Shown here one piece after another: positions 10,250 to 34,229 of a stretch of DNA of 55,653 nt. Below the pieces are notes generated by a model. It was not told the DNA's origin and ran no database searches. It was given only the letters and a program-made list of their open reading frames with translations. The position numbers were made by a program, and so were the translations under genes. How positions within the stretch are numbered: the first letter of the stretch is position 1; the number at the start of each line of letters is the position of its first letter. The stretch spans positions 1-55,653 of the forward strand of contig CAYLYN010000004.1 of NCBI GenBank assembly GCA_964387565.1, in the 5' to 3' direction. Origin of the DNA: an uncultured Rikenellaceae bacterium (lineage in GTDB: Bacteria; Bacteroidota; Bacteroidia; Bacteroidales; VadinHA17).

Positions 10250-10356
10250 CAATAGCTTTGCTTTCAGGATGACAATTTTGAATTTGTATTCAGAAGTCTT
10301 AATCATAGCTATTAATAATGAAATTTACACCTGCCGATCCTTTAAAACCGAGAAGA

Positions 10357-10821
10357 ATGAAGACCTTGATATTAGGGATGGGCAATGATATCCTCACAGA
10401 TGATGCTATTGGACCAAGACTTATACATGACCTGTCAGGGATTATCGGCAACCGGAATGTTGATCTTAATACAGCCTGCTGCGGAGGGCTGGAGATAATA
10501 GAATATATCAGCGGTTATAATAAGGTCATTTTTATTGATGGAATACATACTTCAGGAGGAATACCAGGTGATGTATATTATTATAAAACTTCTGATTTCC
10601 GGGAAACATCACATCTGTCAAGTCTTCACGATATAACTTTTCTCACTTCACTTAAGCTGGGACAAACACTCGGTATTCAGATACCTGAGGACCTGCATAT
10701 CATTGCTATTGAAATTGTTGAAGATATGGAATTTAGTGAAGAGTTTACTCCCCGGTTAAAAAAAAGGTATCCTGAGATATTAAAAAATGTCGTGACAAAA
10801 ATCAATGCAATTCTAGATTAA
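10357..10821 (+). CDS. [NiFe]-hydrogenase maturation endopeptidase (HyaD/FrhD family)
   Basis: The family signature LILGMGNDILTDDAIGPRL lies at the N-terminus when the ATG at 10357 is used (the ORF track starts at 10318). A conserved His region (SLHDITF) is present. About 155 aa. Confidence 0.8.
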   Translation: MKTLILGMGNDILTDDAIGPRLIHDLSGIIGNRNVDLNTACCGGLEIIEYISGYNKVIFIDGIHTSGGIPGDVYYYKTSDFRETSHLSSLHDITFLTSLKLGQTLGIQIPEDLHIIAIEIVEDMEFSEEFTPRLKKRYPEILKNVVTKINAILD

Positions 10822-10885: not shown

Positions 10886-10924
10886 TGTTATTTTAGTAAC
10901 AGAGTTACTGTTATTTTAGTAACA
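10886..10924. promoter_or_regulatory. tandem 16-bp boxes TGTTATTTTAGTAACA (each TGTTA-N6-TAACA), 23-bp period, upstream of mvhD
   Basis: Exact copies at 10886-10901 and 10909-10924. They are bridged by the inverted repeat GTAAC-AGA-GTTAC (10896-10908). Box centres lie 75 and 52 nt upstream of the mvhD ATG. Confidence 0.5.
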
Positions 10925-10968: not shown

Positions 10969-11394
10969 ATGGAATATAAGCCCCGGATTGTTGCATTTCT
11001 GTGCAAATGGTGTTCTTATACAGGAGCAGATCTTGCAGGAACATCGCGCATGGAATATAAAGCTAATGTGCGAGTAATAAGGGTAATGTGTTCAGGCCGG
11101 ATTGAACCTACATTTGTTCTAAGAGCTTTTACAAAAGGTGCTGATGGAGTGCTGGTTTGTGGTTGTCATCCGGGAGATTGCCATTATCAGGAAGGCAACT
11201 ACCGATGCCTCAGGAGATTCATGTTGTTGCAGAAATACATAAAACAGATGGGAATTGAGCCTCAAAGGTTGAAACTTGAATGGATCAGTGCAAGTGAAGG
11301 AAAACAATATGCGGAACTTGTAAACAGTTTTACGGAGACAATTGCTGAAATGGGGCCATGCTCTATTGAAAAAACAATGAAGGTTCTAACATAG
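10969..11394 (+). CDS. mvhD: MvhD-type hydrogenase delta subunit ([2Fe-2S] electron-transfer protein)
   Basis: 141 aa. IVAFLCKWCSYTGADLAG, VMCSGR, VLVCGCHPGDCHYQEGN: the classic MvhD/FlpD Cys pattern. Confidence 0.9.
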   Translation: MEYKPRIVAFLCKWCSYTGADLAGTSRMEYKANVRVIRVMCSGRIEPTFVLRAFTKGADGVLVCGCHPGDCHYQEGNYRCLRRFMLLQKYIKQMGIEPQRLKLEWISASEGKQYAELVNSFTETIAEMGPCSIEKTMKVLT

Positions 11395-11411
11395 ATACAA
11401 ACTTTATTATA

Positions 11412-12386
11412 ATGGAAGGATCAAAGTCAAAACTTAAACTTGCCGTTTACTGGGCCTCTGCCTGCGGAGGCTGCTGCGTATCAGTACTTGATGTTCACGA
11501 AAAGCTTTTTGACGTGATAGCTGCTGCTGATCTCGTTTTTTGGCCTATTGCTCTGGATATCAAATATAAAGATGTTGAAGAGATGCCTGATAATCATATT
11601 GATGTAACTCTTTTTAACGGGGCAGTCAGAAACAGTGAAAACGAACATATGGCCAAGCTGTTAAGAAAGAAAACAAAAGTACTTGTTGCATATGGTAGTT
11701 GCTCTCATCTGGGAGGGATACCCGGATTAGCTAATTTTTCTACAAAAGAAGACATCTTAAGAAGGGTTTTTGAAGAAAGTGAATCAGCAATTAATCCGGA
11801 AAAAACAAGGCCTCAGCCTGAATATGAAGTTAAGGAAGGCACATTGGAAATACCAGTCTTCTATAATGATGTCCGGACTCTTTCTCAAACAGTAGATGTT
11901 GATTACTATCTGCCGGGTTGTCCGCCTCAGACAGAAAGACTTCTGGAAGTTTTCTCTGCTATAGTAAGCGGGGCGGAACTTCCATCGAAGGGCTCAGTAA
12001 TAGGAGCTGAATCAAAAGCCCAGTGCGATGAATGTATCCGGAAAAAGACGGAGAACAAACTTATAAAGAAATTCTATCGCCCGTGGGAAGTTACTGATGA
12101 CGGAGAGACATGTTTCCTGGAACAGGGTATCATTTGCATGGGACCGGCAACAAGAGCAGGATGCGGATATCGTTGCATAAAAGGCAATGCGCCCTGCCGC
12201 GGATGTTATGGACCTGTTTCTGAAGCTATAGATCCGGGAGCAAAAATGATGTCCTCTATCGCAAATATAGTTGACGCAAAAGAACCCGAAGATATCCAGA
12301 GGGTACTCGAGGACGTTGTTGATCCTGCAGGGATTTCTTATCGTTTTAGTCTGCCCTCTTCATTAATTAGAAGGACACTGTCATGA
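11412..12386 (+). CDS. mvhG: [NiFe] hydrogenase small subunit, MvhG-type (group 3c-like)
   Basis: 324 aa, no TAT signal. Proximal-cluster motif YWASACGGCCVSVLD, then GSCSHLGGIPG, LPGCPP and a C-terminal Cys cluster CMGPATRAGCGYRCIKGNAPCRGCYGP. Its 3' end overlaps mvhA by 4 nt (ATGA). Confidence 0.88.
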   Translation: MEGSKSKLKLAVYWASACGGCCVSVLDVHEKLFDVIAAADLVFWPIALDIKYKDVEEMPDNHIDVTLFNGAVRNSENEHMAKLLRKKTKVLVAYGSCSHLGGIPGLANFSTKEDILRRVFEESESAINPEKTRPQPEYEVKEGTLEIPVFYNDVRTLSQTVDVDYYLPGCPPQTERLLEVFSAIVSGAELPSKGSVIGAESKAQCDECIRKKTENKLIKKFYRPWEVTDDGETCFLEQGIICMGPATRAGCGYRCIKGNAPCRGCYGPVSEAIDPGAKMMSSIANIVDAKEPEDIQRVLEDVVDPAGISYRFSLPSSLIRRTLS

Positions 12387-13846
12387 AAAAGATCACAATA
12401 GACCCCATAACGCGCCTCGAAGGTCATGGAAAAATTGAAATTTTCCTTAATAAGGACGGAGAGGTAGATAATGCCTATTTCCAGGTCCCCGAGCTAAGAG
12501 GATTTGAAAAATTCTGCGAGGGAAGACCCGTTGAGGAACTCCCTGCAATAGTTGCAAAAATCTGCGGCGTGTGCCCGGGATGCCATCACATGGCCTCAGG
12601 AAAGGCGGTTGATGCAGTCTTTGGGGTAGAGCCTCCTACTACTGCAAAAAAGCTCAGGGAACTCTTTTATATGGCGCACTTCGTACATAGCCATACAGCC
12701 CATTTTTATGCTCTTGCTGCTCCCGATTTTGTAGTTGGTCCTGGTGCACCATCTGCCAAAAGGAATATCCTTGGGGTTATCGAAGTAGTTGGAAAGGAGA
12801 TCGGTACTGAAGTTATTAAGCAACGGCGATTCGCACAGGAGATACAGGCTCTGCTTGGAGGACATCAGACATTTGTAGTAATGAATATACCGGGCGGAGT
12901 AAGAAAAGGACTTACCGCTAAAGAAAGAGACGATATTGTTGAAAAAGCAAAAGGCTTTATAGATTTCTCAAATTTCACACTTAAGATCTTTAACGATATA
13001 GTACTCGGGAATAAGGATTATGTAGATATTATCCTCAACGGACCATATAGTTTGAAATTACACTCTATGGGGCTTGTCGACAAAAACAACAAGGTAAACT
13101 TCTACGACGGAAAGGTAAGAGTTGTAGATACAGAAGGTAAAGAGCTTTACAAATATTCAGAAAATGAATACCTCGATTATGTAGCCGAACATGTTGAACC
13201 CTGGAGCTACCTTAAGTTTCCATTTCTTAAGAAAATAGGATGGAAAGGTTTTGTTGATGGTCAGAATTCAGGATTATACCATGCAACTCCATTATCAAGG
13301 CTGAATGCAGCCGACGGTATGGCCACACCGATGGCACAAAAAGAATATGAAAGAATGTACTCAACCCTTGGGGGAAAACCTGTTCATGCTACTCTCGCGA
13401 TGCACTGGGCAAGGCTTATCGAACTATTATATTCAGCAGAACGATGCCTTGAGCTTGCAATGGATCCTGAAATTACAGGAAAAGAACTGCGTGCACAACT
13501 TGGTCCGATACCCGGAGAAGGTGTTGGTATTGTTGAAGCTCAGAGAGGAACCCTTACCCATCACTATTGGACAGATGACAAAGGGATGGTAACCAAAGTA
13601 AATATCATTGTTGGAACTACAAACAACAACGGAGCCATCTGTATGTCTATAAGGAAAGCAGCTGAGGGACTTATCAGAAAAGGGGAAGAGGTGACCGATG
13701 GAATACTTAATATGATAGAGATGGCCTTCAGGGCATATGACCCTTGCTTTTCATGTGCTACCCATAGTCTTCCCGGTCAGATGTCAATGATCCTTGAGAT
13801 CCGTGATCATAACGGCAAATTAGTACAACGGCTGATAAGAGATTAA
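12383..13846 (+). CDS. mvhA: [NiFe] hydrogenase large subunit, MvhA-type (group 3c-like)
   Basis: 487 aa. N-terminal RLEGHG, NiFe ligand motifs KICGVCPGCH and DPCFSCATH, followed by a 26-aa C-terminal extension, the usual target of the maturation protease. Confidence 0.9.
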   Translation: MKKITIDPITRLEGHGKIEIFLNKDGEVDNAYFQVPELRGFEKFCEGRPVEELPAIVAKICGVCPGCHHMASGKAVDAVFGVEPPTTAKKLRELFYMAHFVHSHTAHFYALAAPDFVVGPGAPSAKRNILGVIEVVGKEIGTEVIKQRRFAQEIQALLGGHQTFVVMNIPGGVRKGLTAKERDDIVEKAKGFIDFSNFTLKIFNDIVLGNKDYVDIILNGPYSLKLHSMGLVDKNNKVNFYDGKVRVVDTEGKELYKYSENEYLDYVAEHVEPWSYLKFPFLKKIGWKGFVDGQNSGLYHATPLSRLNAADGMATPMAQKEYERMYSTLGGKPVHATLAMHWARLIELLYSAERCLELAMDPEITGKELRAQLGPIPGEGVGIVEAQRGTLTHHYWTDDKGMVTKVNIIVGTTNNNGAICMSIRKAAEGLIRKGEEVTDGILNMIEMAFRAYDPCFSCATHSLPGQMSMILEIRDHNGKLVQRLIRD

Positions 13847-13887
13847 GAATTAAGGATAGATATTTTTTAACCATAAATTAATAGGAT

Positions 13888-15690
13888 ATGCGAACCGGAG
13901 TCTTTTTCTGCCAGATGAATGAAAACAGCAGACTCAATATTGATGCCATCGCAAAGTATTCGGCAAATCTTCCTGATGTTGAAACAGTTCAGATCTTAGG
14001 ATTGAAACCACATCCGGATGTGGAAATTCTCTCAGGACTTATCAGATCTAATAATCTGGAAAGAATTGTTATTGCCGGAGATATGCCTGGTTACTTTAAG
14101 CCAGTGTTTACTAAAGCAATGGCAATTGCGGGGGGTAATACTGATGAAATACGCCTTGCTTCATTCCAGGAGCATGGGGCAAGAGGGGAAAATGCCATGA
14201 ACCGCGCCAAAGCAATTGTTGCATGTGCCTCTATGGGAGTTCCTTTTCCTCTTGTTGCAGTAACGGGAGGAAATCCTGTAAATCATGCGACACTTATTAT
14301 TGGAGGTGGAATAGCCGGCATCCAGGCGGCACTGGAGCTTGCCAACGCCGGGAAAAAGGTTTTCCTTGTTGAACAGACCGGGACTATTGGCGGACATATG
14401 GCTATGTTCGACAAGACATTTCCTACGCTCGACTGCGCAGCATGTATACTTACACCCAAGATGGTTGATGCAGGACAGCATAAGATGATACGCCTGCTTA
14501 CAAGATCAAAAGTAGTGGAGGTCAGCGGCAAGCCTGGCTCCTACAGGGTAAAAATTAAACAAAGTGCGCGGTTTGTAGATGTCAATTCATGCATAGCCTG
14601 TAATCTGTGTGCAGAGGTTTGCCCTGTTAAGGTTCCAAGTGAATTCGATTCCGGGATATCTTTACGAAAAGCAATATATATTCCTTTTCCCCAGGCAGTA
14701 CCCAATGCTTATCTGGTTGATAAAGAGAGTTGTACCTACATACAATCTTTAGGTCAGAAATGTGGCGTTTGTGTGAAAAAATGTCCCAAAGAATGTATTA
14801 ACCTGAACGAAGAAGATCAGTTAGTCGATATTGAAGTTGGAAATATTGTACTGGCTACCGGTTACGAACTACTGGATGTAAGCAAAATAGAACAATATGG
14901 ATATGGCACCTACCCTAATGTTCTAACCTCGCTTGAATTTGAACGACTTACCAATGCTTCAGGCTCTACAGGGGGGAAGATTGTGATGAAATCAAAAAGA
15001 ATAAATAAAAAGACACAGGAAGAGGAGTGGTTCTTTTCATCTGAAGGAATACCTCCTAAAAGTGTCGGACTTATACATTGTGTTGGTTCAAGAAGTAAAA
15101 AATATAATCCCTACTGCTCCAGGGTTTGTTGTATGTATTCCTTGAAATTTGCTCACCTGATAAAAGAAAAAATACCGAATGTCACTGTTTATGAATTCTA
15201 TATAGACATGAGAGCTTTTGGTAAAGGGTATGAAGAATTTGCCGAGCGGATAAAACAGGAAGGGACATTTGTTGTGCGAGGGCATTCAGCATCAGTATCA
15301 ATGAATAATGGTCAGATGTCGGTCCGTGGAGAAGACATTTTCAATGACAGGTTAGTTGAGTTCGATGTTGATATGGTTGTACTTGCAGTAGGGCTTGTGC
15401 CTGCACAGGGCAGTGAAGAGCTTAGCCGAATGCTTGGAGTGGACAGGGACAGTGACGGATGGTTCTCAGAACTTGACTATAACGGAAGTCCAACCGATAC
15501 CGATAAAGGAGGTATTTATGTAGCAGGCATGTGCCAGGCGCCAAAGGATATACCGGATACAGTGGCCCAGGCTTCAGCAGTCGCCGCCGGTGTGCTGAGC
15601 AGCCTTACCAGCGGAAAGGGGATCGGACACCTGAGCACAATCCCCCTCAGGGAGATTGAGGAAAGAGCTAAAAAGATTCAAATAGTATAA
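13888..15690 (+). CDS. hdrA: HdrA-like flavoprotein, paralog 1 (Cys-poor N-domain, inserted ferredoxin domain, no C-terminal ferredoxin)
   Basis: 600 aa. LIIGGGIAGIQAALE FAD fold, GGHMAMFDKTFPTLDCAACILTPKM, an inserted 2x[4Fe-4S] domain (CIACNLCAEVCP ... CGVCVKKCP), HCVGSR...YCSRVCCMY, and GIYVAGMCQAPKDIPDTVAQA. Confidence 0.85.
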   Translation: MRTGVFFCQMNENSRLNIDAIAKYSANLPDVETVQILGLKPHPDVEILSGLIRSNNLERIVIAGDMPGYFKPVFTKAMAIAGGNTDEIRLASFQEHGARGENAMNRAKAIVACASMGVPFPLVAVTGGNPVNHATLIIGGGIAGIQAALELANAGKKVFLVEQTGTIGGHMAMFDKTFPTLDCAACILTPKMVDAGQHKMIRLLTRSKVVEVSGKPGSYRVKIKQSARFVDVNSCIACNLCAEVCPVKVPSEFDSGISLRKAIYIPFPQAVPNAYLVDKESCTYIQSLGQKCGVCVKKCPKECINLNEEDQLVDIEVGNIVLATGYELLDVSKIEQYGYGTYPNVLTSLEFERLTNASGSTGGKIVMKSKRINKKTQEEEWFFSSEGIPPKSVGLIHCVGSRSKKYNPYCSRVCCMYSLKFAHLIKEKIPNVTVYEFYIDMRAFGKGYEEFAERIKQEGTFVVRGHSASVSMNNGQMSVRGEDIFNDRLVEFDVDMVVLAVGLVPAQGSEELSRMLGVDRDSDGWFSELDYNGSPTDTDKGGIYVAGMCQAPKDIPDTVAQASAVAAGVLSSLTSGKGIGHLSTIPLREIEERAKKIQIV

Positions 15691-15699
15691 AGAAGCATT

Positions 15700-16857
15700 A
15701 TGGCAATTAGAGTAAATCCCAAATTCATTGATGTACTGGACCGCTTTGGTGCTGAAGATGTTCAATTATGCTACCAGTGCGGAGATTGTTCAACAGTTTG
15801 TCCTCATGCAGATGAAGTATATAAATTTCCACGTAAATCGATGCGTTCACTGCAAATGGGACTGGACCAGAAAATTGAACATAGCCTGGAACCATGGCTG
15901 TGTTACTATTGTGGACAATGCTCGGAACAGTGTCCAAGGGAAGCAGATCCGGGTGAAACAATGATGAGTCTAAGACGCTGGCTTATTTCCCGTTATGACG
16001 TTACCGGTATTGCAGCAAGGTTCTTCAAATCAAAAACTACAGAGATAGTTGCTGTTATAATTACTGCTGTTGTGACTGGAATATTTCTGACACTCTATGG
16101 TCTGTCAGCTGGAAGCATCCATATCTATGATGGTGACGGAGCATTTCTTCCCAGCAGTTTCATTCACAGATTTGACCTGACTATTGGATTGATTGTTGGT
16201 CTTTTTTTAGTAATAAATGCCATCCGGATGTGGTATTTTGTAATGATTAAAGGAACCCCTTTCCCTGTTCCCTGGTGGTCATATATTCTTGAACTCTACC
16301 AGCTGCCATGGCATTTCTTCACTCAGAAACGCTATTCCGAATGTGAGAGTCAGAATAAAAAAACATTCTTTATGCCATGGTTAGTTCACCTTGGTCTTAT
16401 GCTGGGATATGTAACCATGCTGATACTGGTCATGGTTTTTATAGAGGCTTTTCAGTCCGGACCTGAAATCAACTGGTCAGTACATGTTTTCGGATACCTG
16501 GCTAGTATTGGATTGATAATCGGTACAATATATTTTATCAGGAACCGCTTCAGGAAGAATTATATTCAATATAAGAAATCGCATAGCACAGACTGGATGT
16601 TTGTGGTATTGCTGTTTCTGATTGTTGTTACAGGTATTGCTCAGCATCTGTTTCACAGGACCGGCCTTCTGGTTGAGGCAAATATTACTTATGTCTTTCA
16701 CCTTATGTGTGTCGTTCCCTGGCTTCTCAGGATGCCATTCTCCAAATGGGCTCATCTTGTATACCGACCACTGGCCATGTATTTTGCTGCCATTCGTAAA
16801 GATGCCATAATCCGGCAGGAAGAAATAATACAATCTTCACCGGTTTATATAAAATAA
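15700..16857 (+). CDS. QmoC-like membrane FeS/cytochrome-b-type subunit (HdrC-like domain fused to NarI/HdrE-like 6-TM domain)
   Basis: 385 aa. Two CX2CX2CX3CP motifs (CYQCGDCSTVCP, CYYCGQCSEQCP), then six hydrophobic helices with His candidates (VHLGLML, QHLFH, FHLMC, KWAHLVYRP). Confidence 0.7.
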   Translation: MAIRVNPKFIDVLDRFGAEDVQLCYQCGDCSTVCPHADEVYKFPRKSMRSLQMGLDQKIEHSLEPWLCYYCGQCSEQCPREADPGETMMSLRRWLISRYDVTGIAARFFKSKTTEIVAVIITAVVTGIFLTLYGLSAGSIHIYDGDGAFLPSSFIHRFDLTIGLIVGLFLVINAIRMWYFVMIKGTPFPVPWWSYILELYQLPWHFFTQKRYSECESQNKKTFFMPWLVHLGLMLGYVTMLILVMVFIEAFQSGPEINWSVHVFGYLASIGLIIGTIYFIRNRFRKNYIQYKKSHSTDWMFVVLLFLIVVTGIAQHLFHRTGLLVEANITYVFHLMCVVPWLLRMPFSKWAHLVYRPLAMYFAAIRKDAIIRQEEIIQSSPVYIK

Positions 16858-16868
16858 AAAACAGATTC

Positions 16869-18605
16869 ATGAAAAATTGCAGAATAGGCGTTTATGTCTG
16901 CATGTGCGGAACAAATATCGCCAGGATAGTAGATGTGGAAGCTGTTGCAGAATTTGCTGCAGGTCTGCCAAACGTTGTTACAGCGAAAACATATAAATAT
17001 ATGTGCTCAAATCCCGGACAGGAAATGATTGCACAGGATATTAAAGAAAATCAGCTTAACAGAGTGGTTGTGGCAGCCTGCAGTCCTAACATGCATGAAC
17101 GCACCTTCAGAAATGCACTGAAATCTGCAGGTATTAATCAGTATCTGCTTGAAATGGCAAATATCCGTGAACAATGCAGCTGGGTACACAAAGATCCTGC
17201 AGAGGCAACTGAAAAAGCCAAAGCACTTGTTTTCTCAGCCATCAAAAGGGTAGAACTTCATGAAGAGCTGGAGAGCGTATCTGTTAATATGTGCACAAGT
17301 GTACTTGTAATCGGGGGGGGTATTGCCGGTATGACAACAGCCCTGGAGGTTGCCGATGCAGGCTACCCTGTTCACCTTGTTGAAAAGGATGACCATCTTG
17401 GAGGGCATATTTCACGAGTTGATCTTACAGCTCCATATTTATATTCTGCCCGCGACCTTATTACTGAGCGAATTAACAGGATTGAGAAACATAATAAAGT
17501 TGAAGTCCACCTCAATTCAAAGCTTACAAATCTGACTGGATTCATAGGAAATTTCACTGCCAGAATTGAATCAGATAACGGGAAAGGGGATACGGAGAAA
17601 AATGTCAGGGAAGTAGAAATAGGAAATGTCGTCGTATGCACAGGTTATAAGGAATTCGATGCATCGCGCATAATCCATTACGGCTACGGGAAATTACCAA
17701 ACGTAATTACTTCATTCGAACTGGAGAGAATGATAAGGGCTGGTCGTATTGAAACAAAAGACGGGAAAATCCCACAATATGTAGCAATTATTCATTGTGT
17801 CGGAAGCCGTAACCCTGAGTTTCATACTTATTGCTCCAGAGTATGCTGCATGACTGCCCTTAAGTATGCCCATGAGATTAAGAATGCTAATCCGGAATGT
17901 TACATTTCAGATATTTATATTGACATGCATGCTTTCGGAAAAGGGCATGAGGATTTTTACCTGAAATCATCGGAGGCAAAAACACTGTTTCTGATGTATG
18001 AAAAGGATGACAGGCCGGTCATTCGAAAGGCCGGGCCTAAAGATGATTGTGAAATGCTTATTGAAGTAAATGAAAAACTCTCAGGAGAACATATCGAAAT
18101 TCCTGCCGACATGATCGTCCTTATGGTAGGCATGGAAGCACGGGAAGATTCTCATGAGATTGCACGTACTGTCAACATAAGCCAGGACAAAGATGGCTGG
18201 TTTATAGAGAGTCATCCAAAACTTGAACCGGTTGCTACAACTACCGATGGAGTTTTTATTGCCGGTACATGCGTTGCTCCAAAAGATATTCCTGATACAG
18301 TTGCCCAGGCACGAGCTGCAGCAGCAAGGATACTTGCAAGAATAGCAAAAGGCAAAATAGAGGTTGATGCATTATATTCTGAAGTAAATGAGGAGATCTG
18401 TTCCGGTTGCAGGTTCTGTAACCAGCTCTGCCCCTTCAGTGCAATTGAATTTAATGAGGAGAAAAGGCAAAGCCATATCATCAGTGCTCTGTGCAAGGGA
18501 TGCGGAGTATGTGTTGCGGGTTGTCCCTCAGGTGCAATAAAAGGCAGACATTTTACTGATCAGCAGGTACTTGCCCAGGTAGACGGATTACTTGTAGATT
18601 TATAG
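16869..18605 (+). CDS. hdrA: HdrA-like flavoprotein, paralog 2 (Cys-rich N-domain, C-terminal ferredoxin domain, no inserted ferredoxin)
   Basis: 578 aa. Canonical HdrA N-domain (IGVYVCMCGTNIA, YKYMCSNPGQ, VVVAACSPNMHE, IREQCSWVH), VIGGGIAGMTTALE, HCVGSR...YCSRVCCM, and a C-terminal 2x[4Fe-4S] domain (CSGCRFCNQLCP, CKGCGVCVAGCP). Confidence 0.88.
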   Translation: MKNCRIGVYVCMCGTNIARIVDVEAVAEFAAGLPNVVTAKTYKYMCSNPGQEMIAQDIKENQLNRVVVAACSPNMHERTFRNALKSAGINQYLLEMANIREQCSWVHKDPAEATEKAKALVFSAIKRVELHEELESVSVNMCTSVLVIGGGIAGMTTALEVADAGYPVHLVEKDDHLGGHISRVDLTAPYLYSARDLITERINRIEKHNKVEVHLNSKLTNLTGFIGNFTARIESDNGKGDTEKNVREVEIGNVVVCTGYKEFDASRIIHYGYGKLPNVITSFELERMIRAGRIETKDGKIPQYVAIIHCVGSRNPEFHTYCSRVCCMTALKYAHEIKNANPECYISDIYIDMHAFGKGHEDFYLKSSEAKTLFLMYEKDDRPVIRKAGPKDDCEMLIEVNEKLSGEHIEIPADMIVLMVGMEAREDSHEIARTVNISQDKDGWFIESHPKLEPVATTTDGVFIAGTCVAPKDIPDTVAQARAAAARILARIAKGKIEVDALYSEVNEEICSGCRFCNQLCPFSAIEFNEEKRQSHIISALCKGCGVCVAGCPSGAIKGRHFTDQQVLAQVDGLLVDL

Positions 18606-18673: not shown

Positions 18674-19636
18674 ATGAGAATTAAGGATACCATTGATAAG
18701 ATACCGGGAGGTCTGATGATCATCCCCCTCTTACTTGGTGCACTCATTAACACCCTTTTCCCTCAGGCTTTATTGATAGGTGGATTTACAAGTGCTATGT
18801 TCAAACAGGGTGCTTTGCCTATTCTGGGAGTATTCTTATTCTGCATGGGATCGCAGATAAGTTTTAAAGTTGCTCCCAGGTCGCTTAAGAAAGGAATTAT
18901 CCTTACTGTTACAAAGTATGCTATTGGTGTTGCAATCGGACTGGGAGTGGCTAAAATTTTTGGTCCGGCAGGACTATTCGGGTTAACACCACTTGCAATC
19001 ATAGCAGCAATGACGAACTCCAATGGAGGGCTGTATGTTGCTCTTACAGGTGAATATGGAGATGAAACAGATGTTGGAGCTGTATCAATACTCTCTCTTA
19101 ATGATGGTCCGTTCCTGACTATGGTGGCTTTGGGATTATCAGGCCAGGCTGCAATCCCATTTATGGCATTTATAGCTGTAATAGTGCCTATTTCACTTGG
19201 TATGATCCTTGGTAATCTCGATCCAAAAATGAAATCCTTTCTCGCAGGAGGTGAAAAACTACTTATCCCTTTTTTTGCCTTTCCTTTAGGTGCTGCTATG
19301 AATCTTTCAGATGTATTTGATGCCGGTCTGTCAGGTATACTTCTCGGAGTAATGACAGCATTTATTACCGGCTTTGGAGGATATTTTGCCCTGAGAGCAT
19401 TCGGTGAAAGAAGGAGTATTGCAGGACTTGCAGAAGGTTCAACAGCGGGCAATGCGGTAGGAACACCTGCTGCCATTGCGGCGGCTGATATTTCATATCT
19501 TCCATTTGCAGCTGCTGCAACGGCACAGATTGCTGCATCCTGCATCATAACGGCATTGCTTTGTCCGTTCATTGTGGTATTTATGCATAATTACTTAAAG
19601 AAGAAAGAACTAGCTAAATCAATATTGATCCGGTAA
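18674..19636 (+). CDS. kdgT: 2-keto-3-deoxygluconate permease (KdgT family)
   Basis: 320 aa, polytopic. The N-terminus MRIKDTIDKIPGGLMIIPLLLGALINTLFP closely resembles KdgT. Confidence 0.8.
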   Translation: MRIKDTIDKIPGGLMIIPLLLGALINTLFPQALLIGGFTSAMFKQGALPILGVFLFCMGSQISFKVAPRSLKKGIILTVTKYAIGVAIGLGVAKIFGPAGLFGLTPLAIIAAMTNSNGGLYVALTGEYGDETDVGAVSILSLNDGPFLTMVALGLSGQAAIPFMAFIAVIVPISLGMILGNLDPKMKSFLAGGEKLLIPFFAFPLGAAMNLSDVFDAGLSGILLGVMTAFITGFGGYFALRAFGERRSIAGLAEGSTAGNAVGTPAAIAAADISYLPFAAAATAQIAASCIITALLCPFIVVFMHNYLKKKELAKSILIR

Positions 19637-19724
19637 TTATCTGATATTTGAAATCTTAGAGAATCCTTTGCAGAAGCTTGGTCAGCAAAGAAAAGAATGA
19701 TTGAGACCCTTATCCCTGATTATA

Positions 19725-21218
19725 TTAATCTGCCTGAATTTTCTCTTTTGTCAGCCGGTTATTAACTGTCCTGAAGATATTCAGAGTATTCCCGTTTTTA
19801 AGTTCATCAGGTAATAATTCATGAGGCCAGTTCTGAAATGCAAGTGGCCTTACAAAACGCTTAATTGCATCTCCGCCAACTGATGTAAAACGTCCATCAG
19901 TAGTAGCCGGAAAGGGGCCTCCATGTTGCATACTCAGACATACCTCAACTCCAGTAGGCACTCCGTTAATGATAAATCTTCCACACAAATTTTTAATGTT
20001 GTCAACCAGATCGGTATGATTCTTCATATCATCTACTGTGGCCATCATTGTACAGGTCAGCTGACCTTCCATTGAGCTGGCAATACGTGCAAAATCATCC
20101 ATTGAATTACATTGAACCACCAGTGAATAGGGTCCGAAAATTTCTTCATGCAGCTTAGGATTATGCAGAAACTCGTCTGAAGAGACGGTAGCTATTGTAG
20201 GTATTCCACTGTTTTCACTCTTTTGCAGTTCAGATACTGCAACTATGGTAACTCCCTTTTCCTTTAGAATCTTATCGCGAAGACTCATAAAAGAGCTTGC
20301 AATATTTGCATGCAGCATTTTTGCAGGTGCAATTTTCCTTATTTCTTCGCCTAGTGATGACATAAATTTGTTTAAATCGCTACCCGCCAAACCAATAATA
20401 ACGCCCGGATTTGTACAGAACTGACCTGCTCCCAATGTGATGGAGGCAGCATACATTTTTGCTATTCCATCGGGCGATTCACTAATTTTTCCCGGCATCA
20501 TGAACACAGGATTTACACTTCCCATCTCTGCAAAGACAGGAATCGGATTCTTACGTTCATTTCCCCATCTGAAAAGCAGTGTCCCAACAGATAAAGATCC
20601 TGTAAACCCTACTGCTCTTGTATATGGATGTTTAACCAAAGCTTCACCTGCATAGTCAGAGGTGAAACTGATATGTGAAAAAATACCTTCCGGCATACTC
20701 ATATTTTGTGCAGCTTTCTGAATTAACTCTGCCACCATTTCAGATGTCTTCAGATGTCCCGGGTGGGCTTTAACTATTACCGGGCATCCGGCTGCAAGTG
20801 CACTAGCCGTATCTCCGCCACCTGTGGAATATGCTAAAGGGAAATTACTTGGACCAAAAACAACAACCGGTCCAAGCGGGACATTCATTTTCCTGATATC
20901 AGGTTTAGGAGGAGTACGATCAGGATCAGCAGTGTCAATCCTTGCGTCAAGCCACTCTCCACTTTCGCAATAATCCGCATAACTTCGTAACTGGAATATT
21001 GTCCTGGCTTTTTCATTCTTCAGCCTCGCTTCAGGAAGACTGGTCTCTTCCATGCAGGTTCTTATTAACTCATCACCTGTATTTTCCAGTTCCTCTGCAA
21101 TTGCGTACAGAAATGCCTTTCTCCTGCTTAATGAAAAGTTCCTATATAGTGTAAATGCAGTCCAGGCTTTTTGCATTACAACATCGATCTCTTTATTGAT
21201 AATTTCTTTCGATTCCAT
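19725..21218 (-). CDS. aldehyde dehydrogenase, alpha-ketoglutarate-semialdehyde dehydrogenase-like (XylA-type of the Weimberg route)
   Basis: 497 aa. FGPSNFPLAYSTGGGDTASALAAGCPVIVKAHPGH and GAGQFCTNPG (catalytic Cys) resemble KGSADH-type ALDHs. Confidence 0.75.
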   Translation of the reverse strand: MESKEIINKEIDVVMQKAWTAFTLYRNFSLSRRKAFLYAIAEELENTGDELIRTCMEETSLPEARLKNEKARTIFQLRSYADYCESGEWLDARIDTADPDRTPPKPDIRKMNVPLGPVVVFGPSNFPLAYSTGGGDTASALAAGCPVIVKAHPGHLKTSEMVAELIQKAAQNMSMPEGIFSHISFTSDYAGEALVKHPYTRAVGFTGSLSVGTLLFRWGNERKNPIPVFAEMGSVNPVFMMPGKISESPDGIAKMYAASITLGAGQFCTNPGVIIGLAGSDLNKFMSSLGEEIRKIAPAKMLHANIASSFMSLRDKILKEKGVTIVAVSELQKSENSGIPTIATVSSDEFLHNPKLHEEIFGPYSLVVQCNSMDDFARIASSMEGQLTCTMMATVDDMKNHTDLVDNIKNLCGRFIINGVPTGVEVCLSMQHGGPFPATTDGRFTSVGGDAIKRFVRPLAFQNWPHELLPDELKNGNTLNIFRTVNNRLTKEKIQAD

Positions 21219-21232
21219 ATTTCATGCCTTAA

Positions 21233-22555
21233 TCAGATTATTGAATTTAAGATTAATACCCCCATAAGTCCGATAAAGGAAATAAGAGTTTCCATAAGGG
21301 TCCATGAGAAAAATGTTTGTTTCAGGGAAATATTGAAAAACTCCTTGAACATCCAGAAGGCAGTATCGTTTACATGGGACATAAAAACACTTCCGGAACC
21401 AACAGCCAGAACCATAAGTTCAGGGGAAGCACCTGACGAAACAACCAGTGGAGCCATAATCCCTGATGCGGTTATTGCAGCAACAGTTGCCGATCCTATT
21501 GTAAACCTCAGGAGAGCAGTCACCAGCCAGGCAAACAATAATGGTTGCATCTGCCATTCCTTACTAAAGGATAGAATATAATCTGCTGCACCACTGTCGG
21601 TTAATACCTGCTTAAAAACCCCTCCGGCAGTAATAATCAGCAATATCATTGCGATTCCTGATATACCCTGGCTTAACCACCTCATCACTTTTTCCATCTC
21701 ATGTCCTGCCCGTATACCAAAAAACCAGGAGGCAATAATCACAGTTAATAATAATGCAATGTTTGCATCCCCTGTGAATAACAAAATCTTTCCCGGAACA
21801 GAGTCAGCGGGCAAGAAACTGGTTGCTACAACAGAAAGTGTTATAAGAATAACTGGTAAAAGAGCTATTACGAAAGAAGGGACCGCAGCTGGAAGCTCAC
21901 TCTCCGAGACATCTTCACCCTCTGCAAATAAACCGGTCAGACTTACCTTGATATTTTTAAGCAATCTTCCCAGATAGGGTCCTGCAAGGACTATTGCAGG
22001 AATGGCCAGGATAAAACCGTAAATCAGTGTTTTACCCATATCTGCATTGAAAGCTTTCACTAGAATAACCGGACCGGGGTGAGGTGGCAGAAAACAATGT
22101 GCAGTCGATAATGAAGCAGCCATCGGGATAGCAAGGTACAGCAATGGTAATCGCGTCTCCCTGGCTATTGAGAATATCAGAGGAACCAGGATTACAAAAC
22201 CGGCATTATAAAAGAGCGGTATACCAACAAGAAATCCTGTTAGAAGTAAGGACCACTGGATATTACTCACACCAAAGGCTTTAATAAGTGTCAGAGAGAT
22301 TTTTTTTGCTGCTCCGCTCGATTCCAGGATTTTGCCCAGTACAGCCCCAAGACATATTATCAGAGTCAAACCTGCAAGAGTGCTGCCTACACCTGTTTCA
22401 ATTGATTTGATTAATACCGAAGGTGACATTCCGAGAAATAATCCCGAAAGAACAGAAACGATTAAAAGTGAAAGAAACGGACTTACCTTTTTTATCGACA
22501 AAAAAATCTGTAAAGCAATCGCCAGGATAACAATAATGAGCATCATCTTATGCAA
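21233..22555 (-). CDS. GntP-family gluconate/aldonate:H+ symporter
   Basis: 440 aa, about 12 TM. GntP-like N-terminus and repeat organisation. Overlaps the upstream FAH gene by 8 nt. Confidence 0.8.
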   Translation of the reverse strand: MHKMMLIIVILAIALQIFLSIKKVSPFLSLLIVSVLSGLFLGMSPSVLIKSIETGVGSTLAGLTLIICLGAVLGKILESSGAAKKISLTLIKAFGVSNIQWSLLLTGFLVGIPLFYNAGFVILVPLIFSIARETRLPLLYLAIPMAASLSTAHCFLPPHPGPVILVKAFNADMGKTLIYGFILAIPAIVLAGPYLGRLLKNIKVSLTGLFAEGEDVSESELPAAVPSFVIALLPVILITLSVVATSFLPADSVPGKILLFTGDANIALLLTVIIASWFFGIRAGHEMEKVMRWLSQGISGIAMILLIITAGGVFKQVLTDSGAADYILSFSKEWQMQPLLFAWLVTALLRFTIGSATVAAITASGIMAPLVVSSGASPELMVLAVGSGSVFMSHVNDTAFWMFKEFFNISLKQTFFSWTLMETLISFIGLMGVLILNSII

Positions 22556-23375
22556 CAGTATTAATCAGTTTTCCTATAGAATCAATCATTATTACTATTT
22601 CATCCCCCGATTCTAAAGTAAAGGTGCCGGGAGGGACTATTCCCGTGCCGGTCATTATAAGACAACCATGCGGAAAACTGCATTCGAGATAAACATATTT
22701 CACGAGCTCTTCCAGACTTCGTTTCATCTGGCTTACAGTAATACTGTCTTCAAACACAAGCTGTTTAGCTCTGAATATCTGAAGGTAAATTTTTCTGTTC
22801 CTGTCAAATGGACTATCCGAGATAAAGACTGCAGGCCCCAGTGATGCACAACCATCATAAGTTTTGGCCTGTGGCAGGTATAATGGATTCTCGCCTTCAA
22901 TACTTCTGCTGCTCATGTCATTTCCGGCAGTATAGCCAACAATTTTACCTGATGAAGTTACAACAAGTGTAAGTTCCGGTTCGGGAACATTCCAGGTACT
23001 GTCTTTCCTTATCCTCACCGGGCTGTTATGGCCGGCTATACGAAAAGGATTACTTTTAAAGAAACATTCAGGTCTCACCGCTTCATAGACTTTCCCATAA
23101 AAATCGGCTCCTCCTGTAACTTTACTCTCCTCCTCCCTTCCGATTTTACTCCTGAGATATGTGACACCGCAAGCCCATAGTTCCTGCCGGCTGCCAATAG
23201 GCGGCAATACTTCACTTATGAGAGATGAATCACCGGGAATAAGTGTAGATATAACACTTAATGTATTTTGATATAAATTATCATCATTAATAAAGGTTTC
23301 CCAATCCTCATTTATAAGATAATAATGATCTTCTGCTTCAATAACTATCCCGTTAACTGTTTTGAATAACCTCAT
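22548..23375 (-). CDS. fumarylacetoacetate-hydrolase-family enzyme, 2-keto-3-deoxy-pentonate dehydratase-like (XylX/KdaD-type)
   Basis: 275 aa. FAH-fold C-terminal domain (ACGVTY, GNDMSSR, PQAKTYDGC, TGTGIVPP). The function is suggested by its position between an IlvD/Edd sugar-acid dehydratase and KGSADH. Confidence 0.65.
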   Translation of the reverse strand: MRLFKTVNGIVIEAEDHYYLINEDWETFINDDNLYQNTLSVISTLIPGDSSLISEVLPPIGSRQELWACGVTYLRSKIGREEESKVTGGADFYGKVYEAVRPECFFKSNPFRIAGHNSPVRIRKDSTWNVPEPELTLVVTSSGKIVGYTAGNDMSSRSIEGENPLYLPQAKTYDGCASLGPAVFISDSPFDRNRKIYLQIFRAKQLVFEDSITVSQMKRSLEELVKYVYLECSFPHGCLIMTGTGIVPPGTFTLESGDEIVIMIDSIGKLINTVA

Positions 23376-23404
23376 GACTTATTGATTTAAACAGGTTAAA
23401 TTTA

Positions 23405-25126
23405 TCAATGTGAATCCCTCATAACGACAGATCCTGATTCTCCTGCAAGAAAATCAAAATCACACCCCTTATCAGCCTGCTGTACATGCTGAATGAACAT
23501 ACTGACATAGCCGCGTGAAGCAACCGGTGGAGGCGGAGTCCACGAATTTCTCCTCCTTTGTAAGATTTCTTCTGACACATCCAGGTTCAGGCTTCTTTCC
23601 TTTACATTAAGCTCTATTATATCTCCATTTTCCACGAGTGCAAGAGTACCTCCTGCAGTTGATTCGGGTGAAACATGCAGTACTACAGTACCGTACGCTG
23701 TTCCGCTCATCCTTCCATCCGAGATGCGGACCATATCTGTGATACCCTTTTTTATCAGCTTCTGAGGCAGATCCATGTTTCCTACTTCAGGCATACCCGG
23801 GTACCCTGCCGGCCCTACTCCCTTCAGTACCATAATACAATTCTCATCTATGTCAAGGTCAGGATCATCAATCCTCTCATGGTAATCTTCCATACTCTCA
23901 AAAACAACTGCCCTGCCCCTGTGATGAAGCAGCTCGCCTGAAGTTGCCGAAGGTTTAATTACCGCACCATTCTCGCACAGATTGCCTTTCAGAACAGCAA
24001 TTCCTGCTTTTTCCTTAAAAGGATTTTCCAATTTTGCAATTACATCGTAGTTATAACATGGCGCTCCTTTACAGTTTTCGCCAATCGACTTTCCATTAAC
24101 TGTAATCGCATCAGCATGAATAATATCTTTAAGCTGATCAATTATTACAGGTAATCCCCCGGCGTAGTAAAAATCTTCCATCAGGTATTTACCTGAAGGC
24201 ATAAGGTTAAGCAACAGAGGCATATCACTTCCCAGCTTATCGAAATCGTCAAGAGTAAGCTTGACTCCTATCCTGCCTGCAATTGCCAGCATGTGAATTA
24301 TCAGGTTAGTCGAACCACCTACTGCTGAATTGATTCTGATTGCATTTTCAAATGAGTTCCTGGTCAGGATGTCTGACATCTTCAGGTTTTCCTTTACCAT
24401 CTCTACTATCCGGTTCCCGGAGAGGTGAGCCATTACTTTTTTTCTCGAGTCTACTGCCGGTATGGCAGCAGCACCAGGCAATGTAAGTCCAAGTGCTTCT
24501 ACCATTGTTGCCATTGTTGAAGCAGTACCCATCGTCATACAATGTCCTGCGCTTCTTGAAACACAACTTTCAGCTTCTACCAGATCCTGTTCCGATATGG
24601 TGCCGGCTTTCAGACCTTCAGAAAGCTGCCAGGTTGATGTTCCGGATCCAATTTCCTTTCCCCTGAACTTGCCATTAAGCATAGGTCCGCCGGGGACAAC
24701 TATAGTTGGCAGATTTACACTGGCTGCTCCCATAAGGGTTGAGGGTGTTGTTTTGTCACACCCGGTCAGCAGTACTATCCCGTCTAATGGATTTGCCCTG
24801 ATCGTCTCTTCCACATCCATACTTGCCAGGTTGCGCCAGAGCATCGTTGTTGGCTTCATAATTGTCTCACCCAGCGACATCACCGGAAACTCGAGAGGAA
24901 AGCCTCCTGCCTCATAAACACCACGCTTCACAATCTCGGCAAACTCCCTTAGATGTCCGTTGCATGGAGTCAGATCCGACCATGTATTGCAGATGCCAAT
25001 AACGGGTTTTCCTCTGAACATATGATCAGGATGGCCCTGGTTCCTCAGCCAGCTGCGATGAACAAAACCCATTTTATCATTTTTGCCGAACCACTCGCTG
25101 CTCCTTAAATAATAAGACTTCCCCAT
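23405..25126 (-). CDS. IlvD/Edd-family sugar-acid dehydratase (L-arabinonate/D-xylonate dehydratase-like)
   Basis: 573 aa. LRSSEWFGKNDKMGFVHRSWLRNQG, GICNTWSDLTPCN, LLTGCDKTTP, SRSAGHCMTMGTASTM: the pentonate-dehydratase subgroup pattern. Confidence 0.85.
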   Translation of the reverse strand: MGKSYYLRSSEWFGKNDKMGFVHRSWLRNQGHPDHMFRGKPVIGICNTWSDLTPCNGHLREFAEIVKRGVYEAGGFPLEFPVMSLGETIMKPTTMLWRNLASMDVEETIRANPLDGIVLLTGCDKTTPSTLMGAASVNLPTIVVPGGPMLNGKFRGKEIGSGTSTWQLSEGLKAGTISEQDLVEAESCVSRSAGHCMTMGTASTMATMVEALGLTLPGAAAIPAVDSRKKVMAHLSGNRIVEMVKENLKMSDILTRNSFENAIRINSAVGGSTNLIIHMLAIAGRIGVKLTLDDFDKLGSDMPLLLNLMPSGKYLMEDFYYAGGLPVIIDQLKDIIHADAITVNGKSIGENCKGAPCYNYDVIAKLENPFKEKAGIAVLKGNLCENGAVIKPSATSGELLHHRGRAVVFESMEDYHERIDDPDLDIDENCIMVLKGVGPAGYPGMPEVGNMDLPQKLIKKGITDMVRISDGRMSGTAYGTVVLHVSPESTAGGTLALVENGDIIELNVKERSLNLDVSEEILQRRRNSWTPPPPVASRGYVSMFIQHVQQADKGCDFDFLAGESGSVVMRDSH

Positions 25127-25148
25127 TTTATTAATAGTTTATAAATAA

Positions 25149-26978: not shown

Positions 26979-27051
26979 TCCGGATGATACTTTGCTTGCG
27001 CTGACTATTATTAAACCTGAAATCTCTTTTCATAACCGGTTATGAATTCGC

Positions 27052-28071: not shown

Positions 28072-28119
28072 AATATAATTTTGATTTTAAAGGAATGATG
28101 GAACAGAACATGTTTGATA
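28072..28119 (-). promoter_or_regulatory. conserved 5' leader, copy A (TCAAACATG-N5-TTCCATCATTCC-T-TTAAAATCAA-N9-ATGATG on the coding strand)
   Basis: Three exact blocks (plus strand TTGATTTTAA, GGAATGATGGAA, CATGTTTGA) are shared in the same order with 49259-49303, upstream of an unrelated gene. Confidence 0.55.
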
Positions 28120-28265
28120 AATTTATAAAATGAGTGTCGGTAATTATACACAAAACTCCATTGATTTTCATTTTAAGTTCACATTTTGTAAGTTAACACT
28201 CTTTTAAATATAAATCTTTTCGTTAATATAAAACTTCCGTTTTTACATAATTATATCTCATCAAT

Positions 28266-30431: not shown

Positions 30432-30466
30432 TTGTATTAAGCTTCTGTAACAGTTGGGAGGCGATA

Positions 30467-31147: not shown

Positions 31148-31276
31148 GTGAATGGAGAATAGATGTTCTGTATAAAGTAATCTAACACCAAATTAATGAA
31201 TATTTTCAGAATTCAATCTAAATAATTAAGAGTAGTATTTAATATCTGAACAAATCCACTAAAGAGAAATCAGTTA

Positions 31277-32692: not shown

Positions 32693-32722
32693 TTTCCTTA
32701 AAGGTATAATCCCTTTTTCTGA

Positions 32723-34213: not shown

Positions 34214-34229
34214 AACAAAGCATTGAGTA

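Follow-up and report, generated by a model that had tools for sequence, protein, structure and literature searches.

The DNA analysed here, hereafter the window, is a 55,653-nt (55.6-kb) contig stretch from an uncultured Rikenellaceae bacterium of the order Bacteroidales, and all statements on absent genes cover this window. Six open reading frames (ORFs) on its + strand, spanning positions 10969-18605, were identified from the ORF list and from Pfam and NCBIfam searches as MvhD, MvhG, MvhA, a first HdrA paralogue (HdrA1), a QmoC-like membrane protein, and a second HdrA paralogue (HdrA2). Consecutive genes in this series are separated by 17, -4, 41, 9, and 11 nt, and no terminator-like sites were found within the five short intergenic gaps, which is the sole use made of a promoter scan that is not meaningful for Bacteroidota promoters. 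A preliminary description of this DNA, made from the letters and translations alone, had reported the same six same-strand genes with the same five spacings, as well as the motifs RLEGHG, CGVCPGCH, and DPCFSCATH and two CX2CX2CX3CP motifs, all of which match the ORF list and the translations exactly. It had also stated that no CCG-domain protein and no apr, sat, or dsr gene occurs in the window, and when every ORF of 120 aa or more was scanned against Pfam or NCBIfam, likewise no CCG-domain (HdrB/HdrD, PF02754), Apr, Sat, Dsr, or Hyp protein was returned.

The preliminary description had overlooked a seventh gene, encoding a hydrogenase maturation endopeptidase of the HycI/HybD type (10318-10821, +; PF01750, 36.5 bits; TIGR00072, 85.6 bits for a cut-off of 47.45), which lies 147 nt 5' of mvhD and is part of the locus. 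In the gap between the two genes, the 16-nt sequence TGTTATTTTAGTAACA occurs twice without mismatch, at a spacing of 23 nt (10886-10924). The repeat pair is identical in the nearest relative of the locus (L001, 5181-5220), and a variant with the same 23-nt spacing stands at the equivalent position in locus L002 (5174-5215); the repeats are a candidate operator. An Rfam scan of the window yielded zero matches. On the 3' side, the module is followed by a gene for an unrelated KdgT permease.

Hydrogenase module

The large subunit MvhA (487 aa, 12383-13846, +) appears to be of the group 3c type. Its top match in the PDB was MvhA 5ODC_F (E = 1.1e-121, residues 1-481 against 1-468), which outranked group 3d and 3b enzymes, and the Ni-Fe ligands Cys61, Cys64, Cys455, and Cys458 are kept in 63 of 65 orthologues. 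Traits of group 3c are present, namely N- and C-terminal CxxC motifs providing the Ni-Fe ligands, closest similarity to MvhA/VhuA, a separate MvhD, and a small subunit devoid of a Tat signal. Among NCBIfam models, the best for MvhA was VhuA (NF041785), and the equivalog cut-offs were missed for VhuA (391.6 bits vs 800), VhuG (228.2 vs 450), and VhuD (132.4 vs 215). Since these Vhu models are tuned to methanogens, the hydrogenase is best regarded, judging from its sequence, as a bacterial relative of the Vhu enzymes rather than an equivalog.

The small subunit MvhG (324 aa, 11412-12386, +; PF01058, 85 bits) has 12 cysteines that are kept in 65/65 orthologues, and its N-terminus, MEGSKSKLKLAVYW, shows no RR (twin-arginine) motif; the subunit is therefore expected to be cytoplasmic. 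MvhD (141 aa, 10969-11394, +; PF02662, 188.5 bits) is the [2Fe-2S] adaptor that links the electron-input module to HdrA. Its Cys12, Cys15, Cys41, Cys66, and Cys71 are kept in all 69 orthologues, and it remains beside the HdrA/QmoC core even in loci in which a formate dehydrogenase replaces the hydrogenase (see below). Downstream of the DPCFSCATH motif, which ends in His461, MvhA carries 26 further residues. A C-terminal extension after such a motif is the usual substrate of a hydrogenase maturation protease, and the protease encoded at 10318-10821 presumably removes it; most loci have a protease gene close to the module, and in the gene order seen outside Bacteroidota it lies directly 3' of mvhA.

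Two complementary HdrA paralogues

Both HdrA paralogues match HdrA models in Pfam and NCBIfam with E-values of 1e-110 to 1e-178. HdrA1 (600 aa, 13888-15690, +), which aligns to 5ODC_A (residues 5-568, E = 3.9e-135), comprises an FAD/thioredoxin-reductase domain with its own [4Fe-4S] cluster, a DCAAC motif, and an inserted 2x[4Fe-4S] ferredoxin domain. Cys183 and Cys186 of the DCAAC motif are the equivalents of Cys194 and Cys197 of canonical HdrA, and they are kept in 75/75 orthologues, as are the eight cysteines of the inserted ferredoxin domain (Cys235/238/241/245 and Cys282/292/295/299) and the thioredoxin-reductase-domain cluster ligands Cys398, Cys410, Cys414, and Cys415. The N-terminal domain of HdrA1 has lost its cluster ligands, with Cys8 alone left, and this paralogue lacks a C-terminal ferredoxin domain. 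HdrA2 (578 aa, 16869-18605, +; 8RVU_a residues 10-244 and 317-653, E = 1.6e-153) presents the mirror image: the N-terminal cluster ligands Cys11, Cys13, Cys46, and Cys71, the thioredoxin-reductase-domain cluster (Cys310/322/326/327), and the eight cysteines of a C-terminal 2x[4Fe-4S] ferredoxin domain are each kept in 71/71 orthologues, Cys194 and Cys197 are replaced by Ser and Asp, and the entire inserted ferredoxin domain is gone.

Hence, the features that canonical HdrA combines in one polypeptide, i.e., N-terminal cluster, FAD, and inserted and C-terminal ferredoxin domains, are divided here between two proteins, and a direct pairwise alignment of HdrA1 and HdrA2 bears out the complementary positions. 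In the methanogen Mvh-Hdr structure, the exit toward HdrBC runs through the thioredoxin-reductase-domain cluster, and the exit toward ferredoxin leads first over the N-terminal cluster, to which the partner protomer contributes Cys197 as fourth ligand, and next over the inserted ferredoxin domain (PMC9012536). Complementary tandem HdrA paralogues have been described in anaerobic methanotrophic archaea (ANME) and interpreted as heterodimers (Chadwick et al. 2022, PMC9012536), and the hallmarks of such an asymmetric HdrA heterodimer, with complementary ligands, Cys197, and ferredoxin domains, were all found in the window. The two proteins are thus complementary halves of a canonical HdrA dimer, and not QmoA and QmoB, with HdrA1 as the probable bifurcating half and HdrA2 as the probable docking or input half. 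Because the complementary losses follow the logic of the ANME heterodimers, HdrA1 and HdrA2 would have to form an obligate heterodimer in which the input domain, the composite N-terminal cluster, and the ferredoxin-output domain are each present once, and hence a single complete bifurcation path is available; with such a path, neither protein would be an analogue of QmoA or QmoB.

Automatic gene calls on public contigs place the start of HdrA1 9 codons and that of HdrA2 11 codons late (L081, 1949 and 4936, corresponding to window positions 13888 and 16869). These late starts clip the first conserved N-terminal cysteine, and alignment to solved HdrA structures favors the longer ORFs used here.

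The membrane subunit

The 385-aa QmoC-like protein (15700-16857, +) aligns to nearly the complete NCBIfam qmoC model (NF038018, model positions 4-360 of 360, E = 1.7e-58) with 198.8 bits. Its residues 5-98 align to HdrC 7BKB_C (E = 1.5e-12), and the HdrC model TIGR03290 is matched at E = 6.4e-15. The protein is thus an HdrC-like 2x[4Fe-4S] domain (residues 1-100) fused to a six-helix membrane domain, and the eight cluster cysteines, in two four-Cys motifs, are kept in 82-83 of 83 sequences. The six membrane helices proposed in the preliminary description are borne out by hydropathy and by the secondary structure of an AlphaFold2 model, which was built from an alignment of 31 sequences at 72-86% identity. 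Lys and Arg residues are confined to the loops 185-226 and 285-296 and to the C-terminal tail, which indicates an N-in topology.

Candidate haem-ligand histidines had also been noted in the preliminary description, and alignments show that these are conserved both in orthologues and in distant paralogues. Among 23 multi-phylum orthologues, His156, His230, His262, His295, His316, His319, His334, and His352 are invariant, and His230, His334, and His352, together with Cys215, are invariant even among QmoC-like paralogues at 24-35% identity. Four of these histidines (His156, 262, 316, and 319) lie near the outer membrane face, three (His230, 295, and 352) near the inner face, and His334 at mid-membrane. 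This placement would suit two bis-His haems across the membrane, and we propose that the subunit is a putative di-haem cytochrome b with a quinone site. The membrane domain is also matched by TcuB models (E = 1e-11).

Conservation of the module and variants of the locus

A collection with one genome per species contains 131 loci encoding a QmoC-like relative, and the counts given here use the best 80 of these, with the loci that have room for the neighbor in question as denominators. HdrA1 lies immediately 5' of QmoC in 74/74 loci and HdrA2 lies 3' of it in 69/69, and the Mvh module adjoins this core in 55 of 58 loci, in two gene orders. The order of the window (mvhD-mvhG-mvhA-hdrA1-qmoC-hdrA2) was found in 43 of 44 Bacteroidota loci, and the order hdrA1-qmoC-hdrA2-mvhD-mvhG-mvhA-protease in 12 of 14 loci of other phyla. 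The genes of the module therefore stay together in more than 10 phylum-level labels even though their order changes, and this persistence through rearrangement provides strong evidence that the genes form one functional unit. Recurrence in 80 species-level genomes likewise rules out a chance gene neighborhood. The check on co-occurrence of the six-gene order suggested in the preliminary description thus came out in its favor, and its central proposal, a conserved unit consisting of a cytoplasmic [NiFe] hydrogenase, two HdrA flavoproteins, and a membrane subunit in place of HdrB, is supported by this linkage and by the conserved histidines.

By label, 59 of the best 80 loci belong to Bacteroidota, and the other 21 to Acidobacteriota/Thermoanaerobaculia, Aminicenantes, Chrysiogenota, Sumerlaeota, Latescibacterota, Planctomycetota, and deltaproteobacterial groups. 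Closest to the window is L001 (Bacteroidales SMAG_U14069), with 94-97% identity over the six proteins. Homology searches with the QmoC-like protein returned more than 1,900 clusters at 90% identity, the top 120 of which, at 72-86% identity, come from Bacteroidales metagenome-assembled genomes (MAGs) where named, and a second search with a multi-phylum profile again led to Bacteroidales. The preliminary description had regarded the Bacteroidota-like host as unusual, a view that does not hold given that Bacteroidales are the main carriers. The wider QmoC-like family is small, with 158 clusters at 50% identity recovered by an exhaustive search at E <= 1e-30. A look-up of the window protein itself found matches only on Logan contigs of at most 6 kb.

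Variants of the locus are informative on how its parts are used. In two Thermoanaerobaculia MAGs (L067, 13320-16158; L074, 13320-16182), the genes next to the hdrA1-qmoC-hdrA2-mvhD core, on its 3' side, encode a 271-aa Fe-S protein and a molybdopterin oxidoreductase, which take the place of MvhG and MvhA. The oxidoreductase gene contains an in-frame TGA within the motif NNVDHCARL-U-HSVTVAG, and the product is predicted to be a selenocysteine-containing formate dehydrogenase of the FdhA type. This would mean that the donor module is exchangeable on the same core, and the Mvh/Fdh swap marks hdrA1-qmoC-hdrA2-mvhD as the probable coupling device.

A second variant bears on the relationship to the heterodisulfide reductase subunits HdrBC. 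In a deltaproteobacterial MAG (L076, 102-7930), a canonical set of hdrC, hdrB (CCG), a full-length hdrA (664 aa), mvhDGA, and a protease gene stands directly 5' of the QmoC-type module, so that two tandem Mvh systems are present, each with its own hydrogenase. With two complete systems in parallel, QmoC-like looks like a replacement for HdrBC and not an accessory. One could still argue that the module is a reductase of heterodisulfide or of a DsrC-type disulfide that relies on HdrBC or another CCG protein encoded elsewhere, with QmoC-like serving as an anchor or side branch, since some carriers, such as the L076 genome, encode a canonical Hdr as well and HdrA paralogues are promiscuous. However, the HdrC-like domain, which normally bridges HdrA and HdrB, forms one polypeptide with the membrane domain in this module, the only CCG gene linked to the module in the loci compared belongs to the separate set of L076 with its own HdrA and hydrogenase, and the six-gene unit is self-contained in 55/58 loci. 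We consequently rejected this explanation, which we rate as very improbable.

Other loci showed further arrangements. In L052 (702-13377) and L059 (3-12894), a single mvhDGA lies between two paralogous HdrA1/QmoC/HdrA2 trios, the second QmoC having 38% identity and a Glu in place of His156, which suggests that one hydrogenase serves two alternative membrane modules. Among Bacteroidales loci, L043 (6890-11719) encodes an HdrA2-like protein, MvhD, two Fe-S proteins, and an NAD-binding flavoprotein (Flx-like); L028 (14359-18703, -) encodes a partial HdrA, a 649-aa full-length HdrA, a 101-aa ORF, and a QmoC-like protein, with no hydrogenase; and L027 (13209-14393) has an additional QmoC-like gene directly 3' of hdrA2.

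Relationship to known systems

A gene cluster of the same kind was reported from methanogenic Archaeoglobi in 2022-2024. Buessecker et al. wrote of a "fascinating gene cluster" in Ca. Methanoglobus nevadensis, composed of MvhABG, two HdrA, and a QmoC-HdrC fusion, and speculated on electron flow among H2, ferredoxin, and menaquinone (10.1101/2022.12.01.518715; ISME J 2023). Lynes et al. found the cluster to be highly expressed in culture and proposed H2 bifurcation to menaquinone and ferredoxin (10.1101/2023.09.08.556235). By published description, which is the basis of our comparison, the clusters of Ca. M. nevadensis and Ca. M. hypatiae have the same listed composition as the window locus, no AprAB, and the same proposed function, and the window likewise has MvhADG, two HdrA, and a cytochrome-b-type HdrC-QmoC fusion co-located and no AprAB. 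The Archaeoglobi hosts are archaeal and thermophilic, unlike the bacterial host of the window, and the two papers call the cluster "unique" and mention neither a wide bacterial distribution nor a formate dehydrogenase variant. In the open-access literature on QmoC with Mvh, group 3c, or Bacteroidetes, we found no account of such a module in bacteria or of how widely it occurs there, nor of a formate dehydrogenase variant or of the ligand complementarity. The window locus is thus a new bacterial member of a genomically recognized kind, and the architecture itself is not new.

The MvhADG-HdrABC complexes of methanogens (5ODC, 8RVU, 9SW2) provide full-length homologues of MvhA, MvhG, and MvhD, an HdrC that matches the N-terminus of the QmoC-like protein, and an HdrA of which every domain and cluster is held jointly by HdrA1 and HdrA2, and they probably share with the window module the principle of flavin-based bifurcation to ferredoxin. 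In contrast to these complexes, the window module has a membrane domain where HdrB and the heterodisulfide site would be, and the HdrA homodimer is replaced by what would be an obligate heterodimer with one complete path, so that one of each subunit is expected instead of a dimer of hexamers. The tandem or fused HdrA of ANME and the MetFV-HdrABC of Moorella (PMC9012536) show the same split, with the N-terminal cluster in one paralogue, Cys197 in the other, and complementary ferredoxin domains. They differ in that the Cys197 paralogue of the window keeps a ligand-less N-terminal domain, and in that its partner is a membrane subunit and not HdrBC or soluble modules. A further parallel is FdhAB-MvhD-HdrABC of Methanococcus and Methanospirillum (7BKB), in which the MvhD adaptor admits a formate dehydrogenase as donor, as it would in L067 and L074, whereas the output of the window type leads to a QmoC-like protein and the membrane and not to HdrBC and formylmethanofuran dehydrogenase. 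Functional analogies extend to further systems. FixABCX/EtfABCX bifurcates electrons with quinone as high-potential and ferredoxin or flavodoxin as low-potential acceptor, and TcuB, which comprises an Fe-S domain and a haem-containing membrane domain, moves electrons from a flavoprotein to the membrane. The flavoproteins and donors of these systems (NADH; tricarballylate) are unrelated to those of the window, and neither system includes a hydrogenase.

QmoABC of sulfate reducers and sulfur oxidizers requires closer scrutiny, as the preliminary description had likened the membrane end of the locus to it. The likeness holds for the architecture of the QmoC-like subunit, i.e., an HdrC-like domain with six membrane helices, and more generally for the presence of two HdrA-related flavoproteins and an MvhD-type module. 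It fails for the two HdrAs, which are not QmoA and QmoB, for the score, which falls below the qmoC cut-off, and for linkage to apr. In the window, MvhD is a separate protein, the order is A1-C-A2 and not A-B-C, no aprBA is linked, and a hydrogenase is part of the operon. In addition, the paralogues, at ~580-600 aa and with HdrA N-terminal domains, are unlike the short QmoA and the MvhD-fused QmoB (PMC3333476, together with the usual definitions of these proteins).

These comparisons also serve to judge whether the locus could encode a true QmoABC serving adenosine 5'-phosphosulfate (APS) reductase, with Mvh as its long-sought third partner. JGI annotations name many of the orthologues QmoC, the gene order seen outside Bacteroidota has mvhD ~0-3 nt after hdrA2, like a split QmoB, and Ramos et al. 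2012 (PMC3333476) suggested that QmoB, with its MvhD-like domain as the contact, could have a hydrogenase such as Mvh as its missing partner. Nevertheless, apr, sat, and dsr were not found in the 55.6-kb window, the 198.8 bits of the QmoC-like protein compare to an equivalog cut-off of 300, and the carriers are mostly Bacteroidales, which are not known to be sulfate reducers. Moreover, QmoA is a short protein, and both flavoproteins of the window are of the full HdrA type with N-terminal domains. On these grounds, a Qmo/APS reductase system was rejected, and we consider it hardly credible.

Proposed mechanism

Taken together, gene content, linkage, and the division of HdrA features suggest a reading to which we assign a probability of about 0.55, namely that MvhA, MvhG, MvhD, HdrA1, HdrA2, and the QmoC-like subunit, with the protease as accessory gene product, form one asymmetric membrane-anchored complex that bifurcates electrons from H2 to menaquinone and ferredoxin, with H2 uptake as the main direction. 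One argument for it is that the complementarity of the HdrA paralogues is exact in at least 71 orthologues each. The electron path can be drawn by homology to the Mvh-Hdr structure summarized in PMC9012536. The [NiFe] site of MvhA would oxidize H2 in the cytoplasm, and electrons would pass through the clusters of MvhG and the [2Fe-2S] cluster of MvhD to the sole C-terminal ferredoxin domain, that of HdrA2, and from there to the FAD of HdrA1, which would be the bifurcating flavin. The low-potential electron would travel through a composite [4Fe-4S] cluster, formed by the N-terminal cysteines of HdrA2 and Cys186 of HdrA1, to the inserted domain of HdrA1 and on to ferredoxin, and the high-potential electron through the thioredoxin-reductase-domain cluster of HdrA1 to the HdrC-like domain of the QmoC-like subunit, one or more haems b, and menaquinone. 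In sum, with MK for menaquinone and Fd for ferredoxin, the reaction would be 2 H2 + MK + 2 Fd(ox) -> MKH2 + 2 Fd(red) + 2 H+, and it would be reversible in principle.

At standard potentials of -414 mV for H2, -74 mV for MK, and ~-450 mV for Fd, this reaction is exergonic by ~29 kJ per mol H2, and part of the large potential drop from H2 to quinone could thus be saved as reduced ferredoxin, for instance for use by Rnf. Two quinone-using enzymes encoded elsewhere in the window, a cytochrome c of the NapC/NrfH type and a dehydrogenase of the GlpD type, are consistent with a quinone pool in this host.

Several observations weigh against this proposal. The QmoC-like protein scores below the qmoC equivalog cut-off, the NarI model PF02665 matches its membrane domain below threshold (20 bits vs 22.9; 9 of 34 members), and a profile of the membrane domain built from 34 sequences had no match among PDB sequences. 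The AlphaFold2 model of the subunit has a mean predicted local distance difference test (pLDDT) score of 63, with 70-90 in the helices and below 50 in the Fe-S domain, and a Foldseek search of this mediocre model against the PDB gave nothing significant, the best hits being EtfD 9OJN (E = 0.35) and NarI (E ~1). Our literature search found no biochemical characterization of any member of the family; to this extent the preliminary description, which knew of no characterized example, was right, although the architecture and the hypothesis linking H2, menaquinone, and ferredoxin were already in print for Archaeoglobi. Two further points, the fate of the HdrA2 flavin and the direction of operation, each lead to a different explanation of the same genes.

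HdrA2 retains an FAD motif and a thioredoxin-reductase-domain cluster of its own (71/71), for which the proposed path has no role. This idle flavin would be less surprising if the complex were a plain, non-bifurcating H2:menaquinone oxidoreductase in which the HdrA pair is only a wire, with a vestigial ferredoxin branch, and some HdrA-containing complexes reportedly do not bifurcate. A vestigial branch should decay, however, and the eight cysteines of the inserted domain and the split N-terminal ligands are kept in 75/75 and 71/71 orthologues, respectively, down to ~50% identity; two large flavoproteins would also make for a costly wire. We therefore deem a non-bifurcating enzyme improbable.

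As for direction, the sequence does not fix it, and the same complex could run in reverse, evolving H2 by confurcation of electrons from menaquinol (e.g., from succinate or acyl-CoA oxidation) and reduced ferredoxin at low H2 partial pressure, as in syntrophy. The modules of the chain are reversible, the titles of the MAGs place many carriers in methanogenic or sedimentary habitats, and the outer-face His156, His262, His316, and His319 suggest an outer quinone site, at which quinol oxidation would liberate protons on the outside and thereby add to the proton-motive force. Confurcation has moreover been proposed for Qmo (Ramos et al. 2012, PMC3333476). Reverse operation would nonetheless require H2 below about 1 Pa by our own calculation, and the Archaeoglobi cluster, highly expressed in culture, is proposed by its authors to pass electrons from H2 to menaquinone and ferredoxin (10.1101/2023.09.08.556235). 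The formate dehydrogenase variant fits the use of a donor as well as it fits formate production. Overall, we view reverse operation as unlikely for the main physiological role, albeit a serious contender, and H2 uptake with bifurcation to menaquinone and ferredoxin as the preferred reading.

Other genes in the window

Upstream of the hydrogenase locus, positions 5914-8768 (-) hold a mercury-methylation gene pair with flanking genes. HgcA (7268-8305, -; 414 bits for a cut-off of 275) displays the cap-helix motif NVWCAAGK, and HgcB (6967-7260, -; 118 bits for a cut-off of 99) ends in CC; the flanks encode an ArsR-family regulator (8445-8768) and an Acr3/SBF-type permease (5914-6948). The presence of this hgcAB pair makes the Bacteroidales host a putative Hg methylator.

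Downstream, the region 18674-36644 is devoted to the catabolism of sugar acids and polysaccharides, with genes for KdgT, GntP, an aldehyde dehydrogenase, dehydratases of the IlvD/Edd and altronate/galactarate types, two sulfatases, and a GH5 cellulase, and it also includes a SulP transporter-carbonic anhydrase fusion. These catabolic genes fit a saccharolytic Bacteroidales lifestyle. Finally, an unusual gene at 51830-53362 (-) encodes an N-terminal multihaem cytochrome c of the NapC/NirT/NrfH type (quinol dehydrogenase family) fused to a formylglycine-generating-enzyme/GldK-like domain, which hints at a quinone-linked periplasmic function.

Implications

Group 3c hydrogenases are common in non-methanogenic bacteria, where heterodisulfide is absent and their acceptor is in question. 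For Bacteroidales and at least 10 other phylum-level groups, the locus described here offers a testable answer, in which the quinone pool replaces heterodisulfide and ferredoxin is still reduced. Extended to the whole family, we regard it as an even bet that these loci encode a widespread bacterial class of membrane-anchored bifurcating oxidoreductases, built from an HdrA1/HdrA2 heterodimer, a QmoC-like subunit, and MvhD, in which the donor is either a [NiFe] hydrogenase or a formate dehydrogenase with selenocysteine, and menaquinone and ferredoxin are the acceptors. If so, many group 3c hydrogenases of bacteria would find in such a class the physiological partner that they have lacked so far, cytoplasmic oxidation of H2 or formate could conserve energy without heterodisulfide, and the uptake or release of H2 and formate would have to be budgeted differently for anoxic systems dominated by Bacteroidales, such as sediments and digesters. 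It would also represent a hydrogenase- or formate-dehydrogenase-driven counterpart to quinone-dependent bifurcation of the FixABCX type, and provide a tractable bacterial setting for a complex discussed so far only in hard-to-grow Archaeoglobi. An asymmetric HdrA heterodimer with a single path would, in addition, be an attractive minimal system for the mechanism of HdrA bifurcation.

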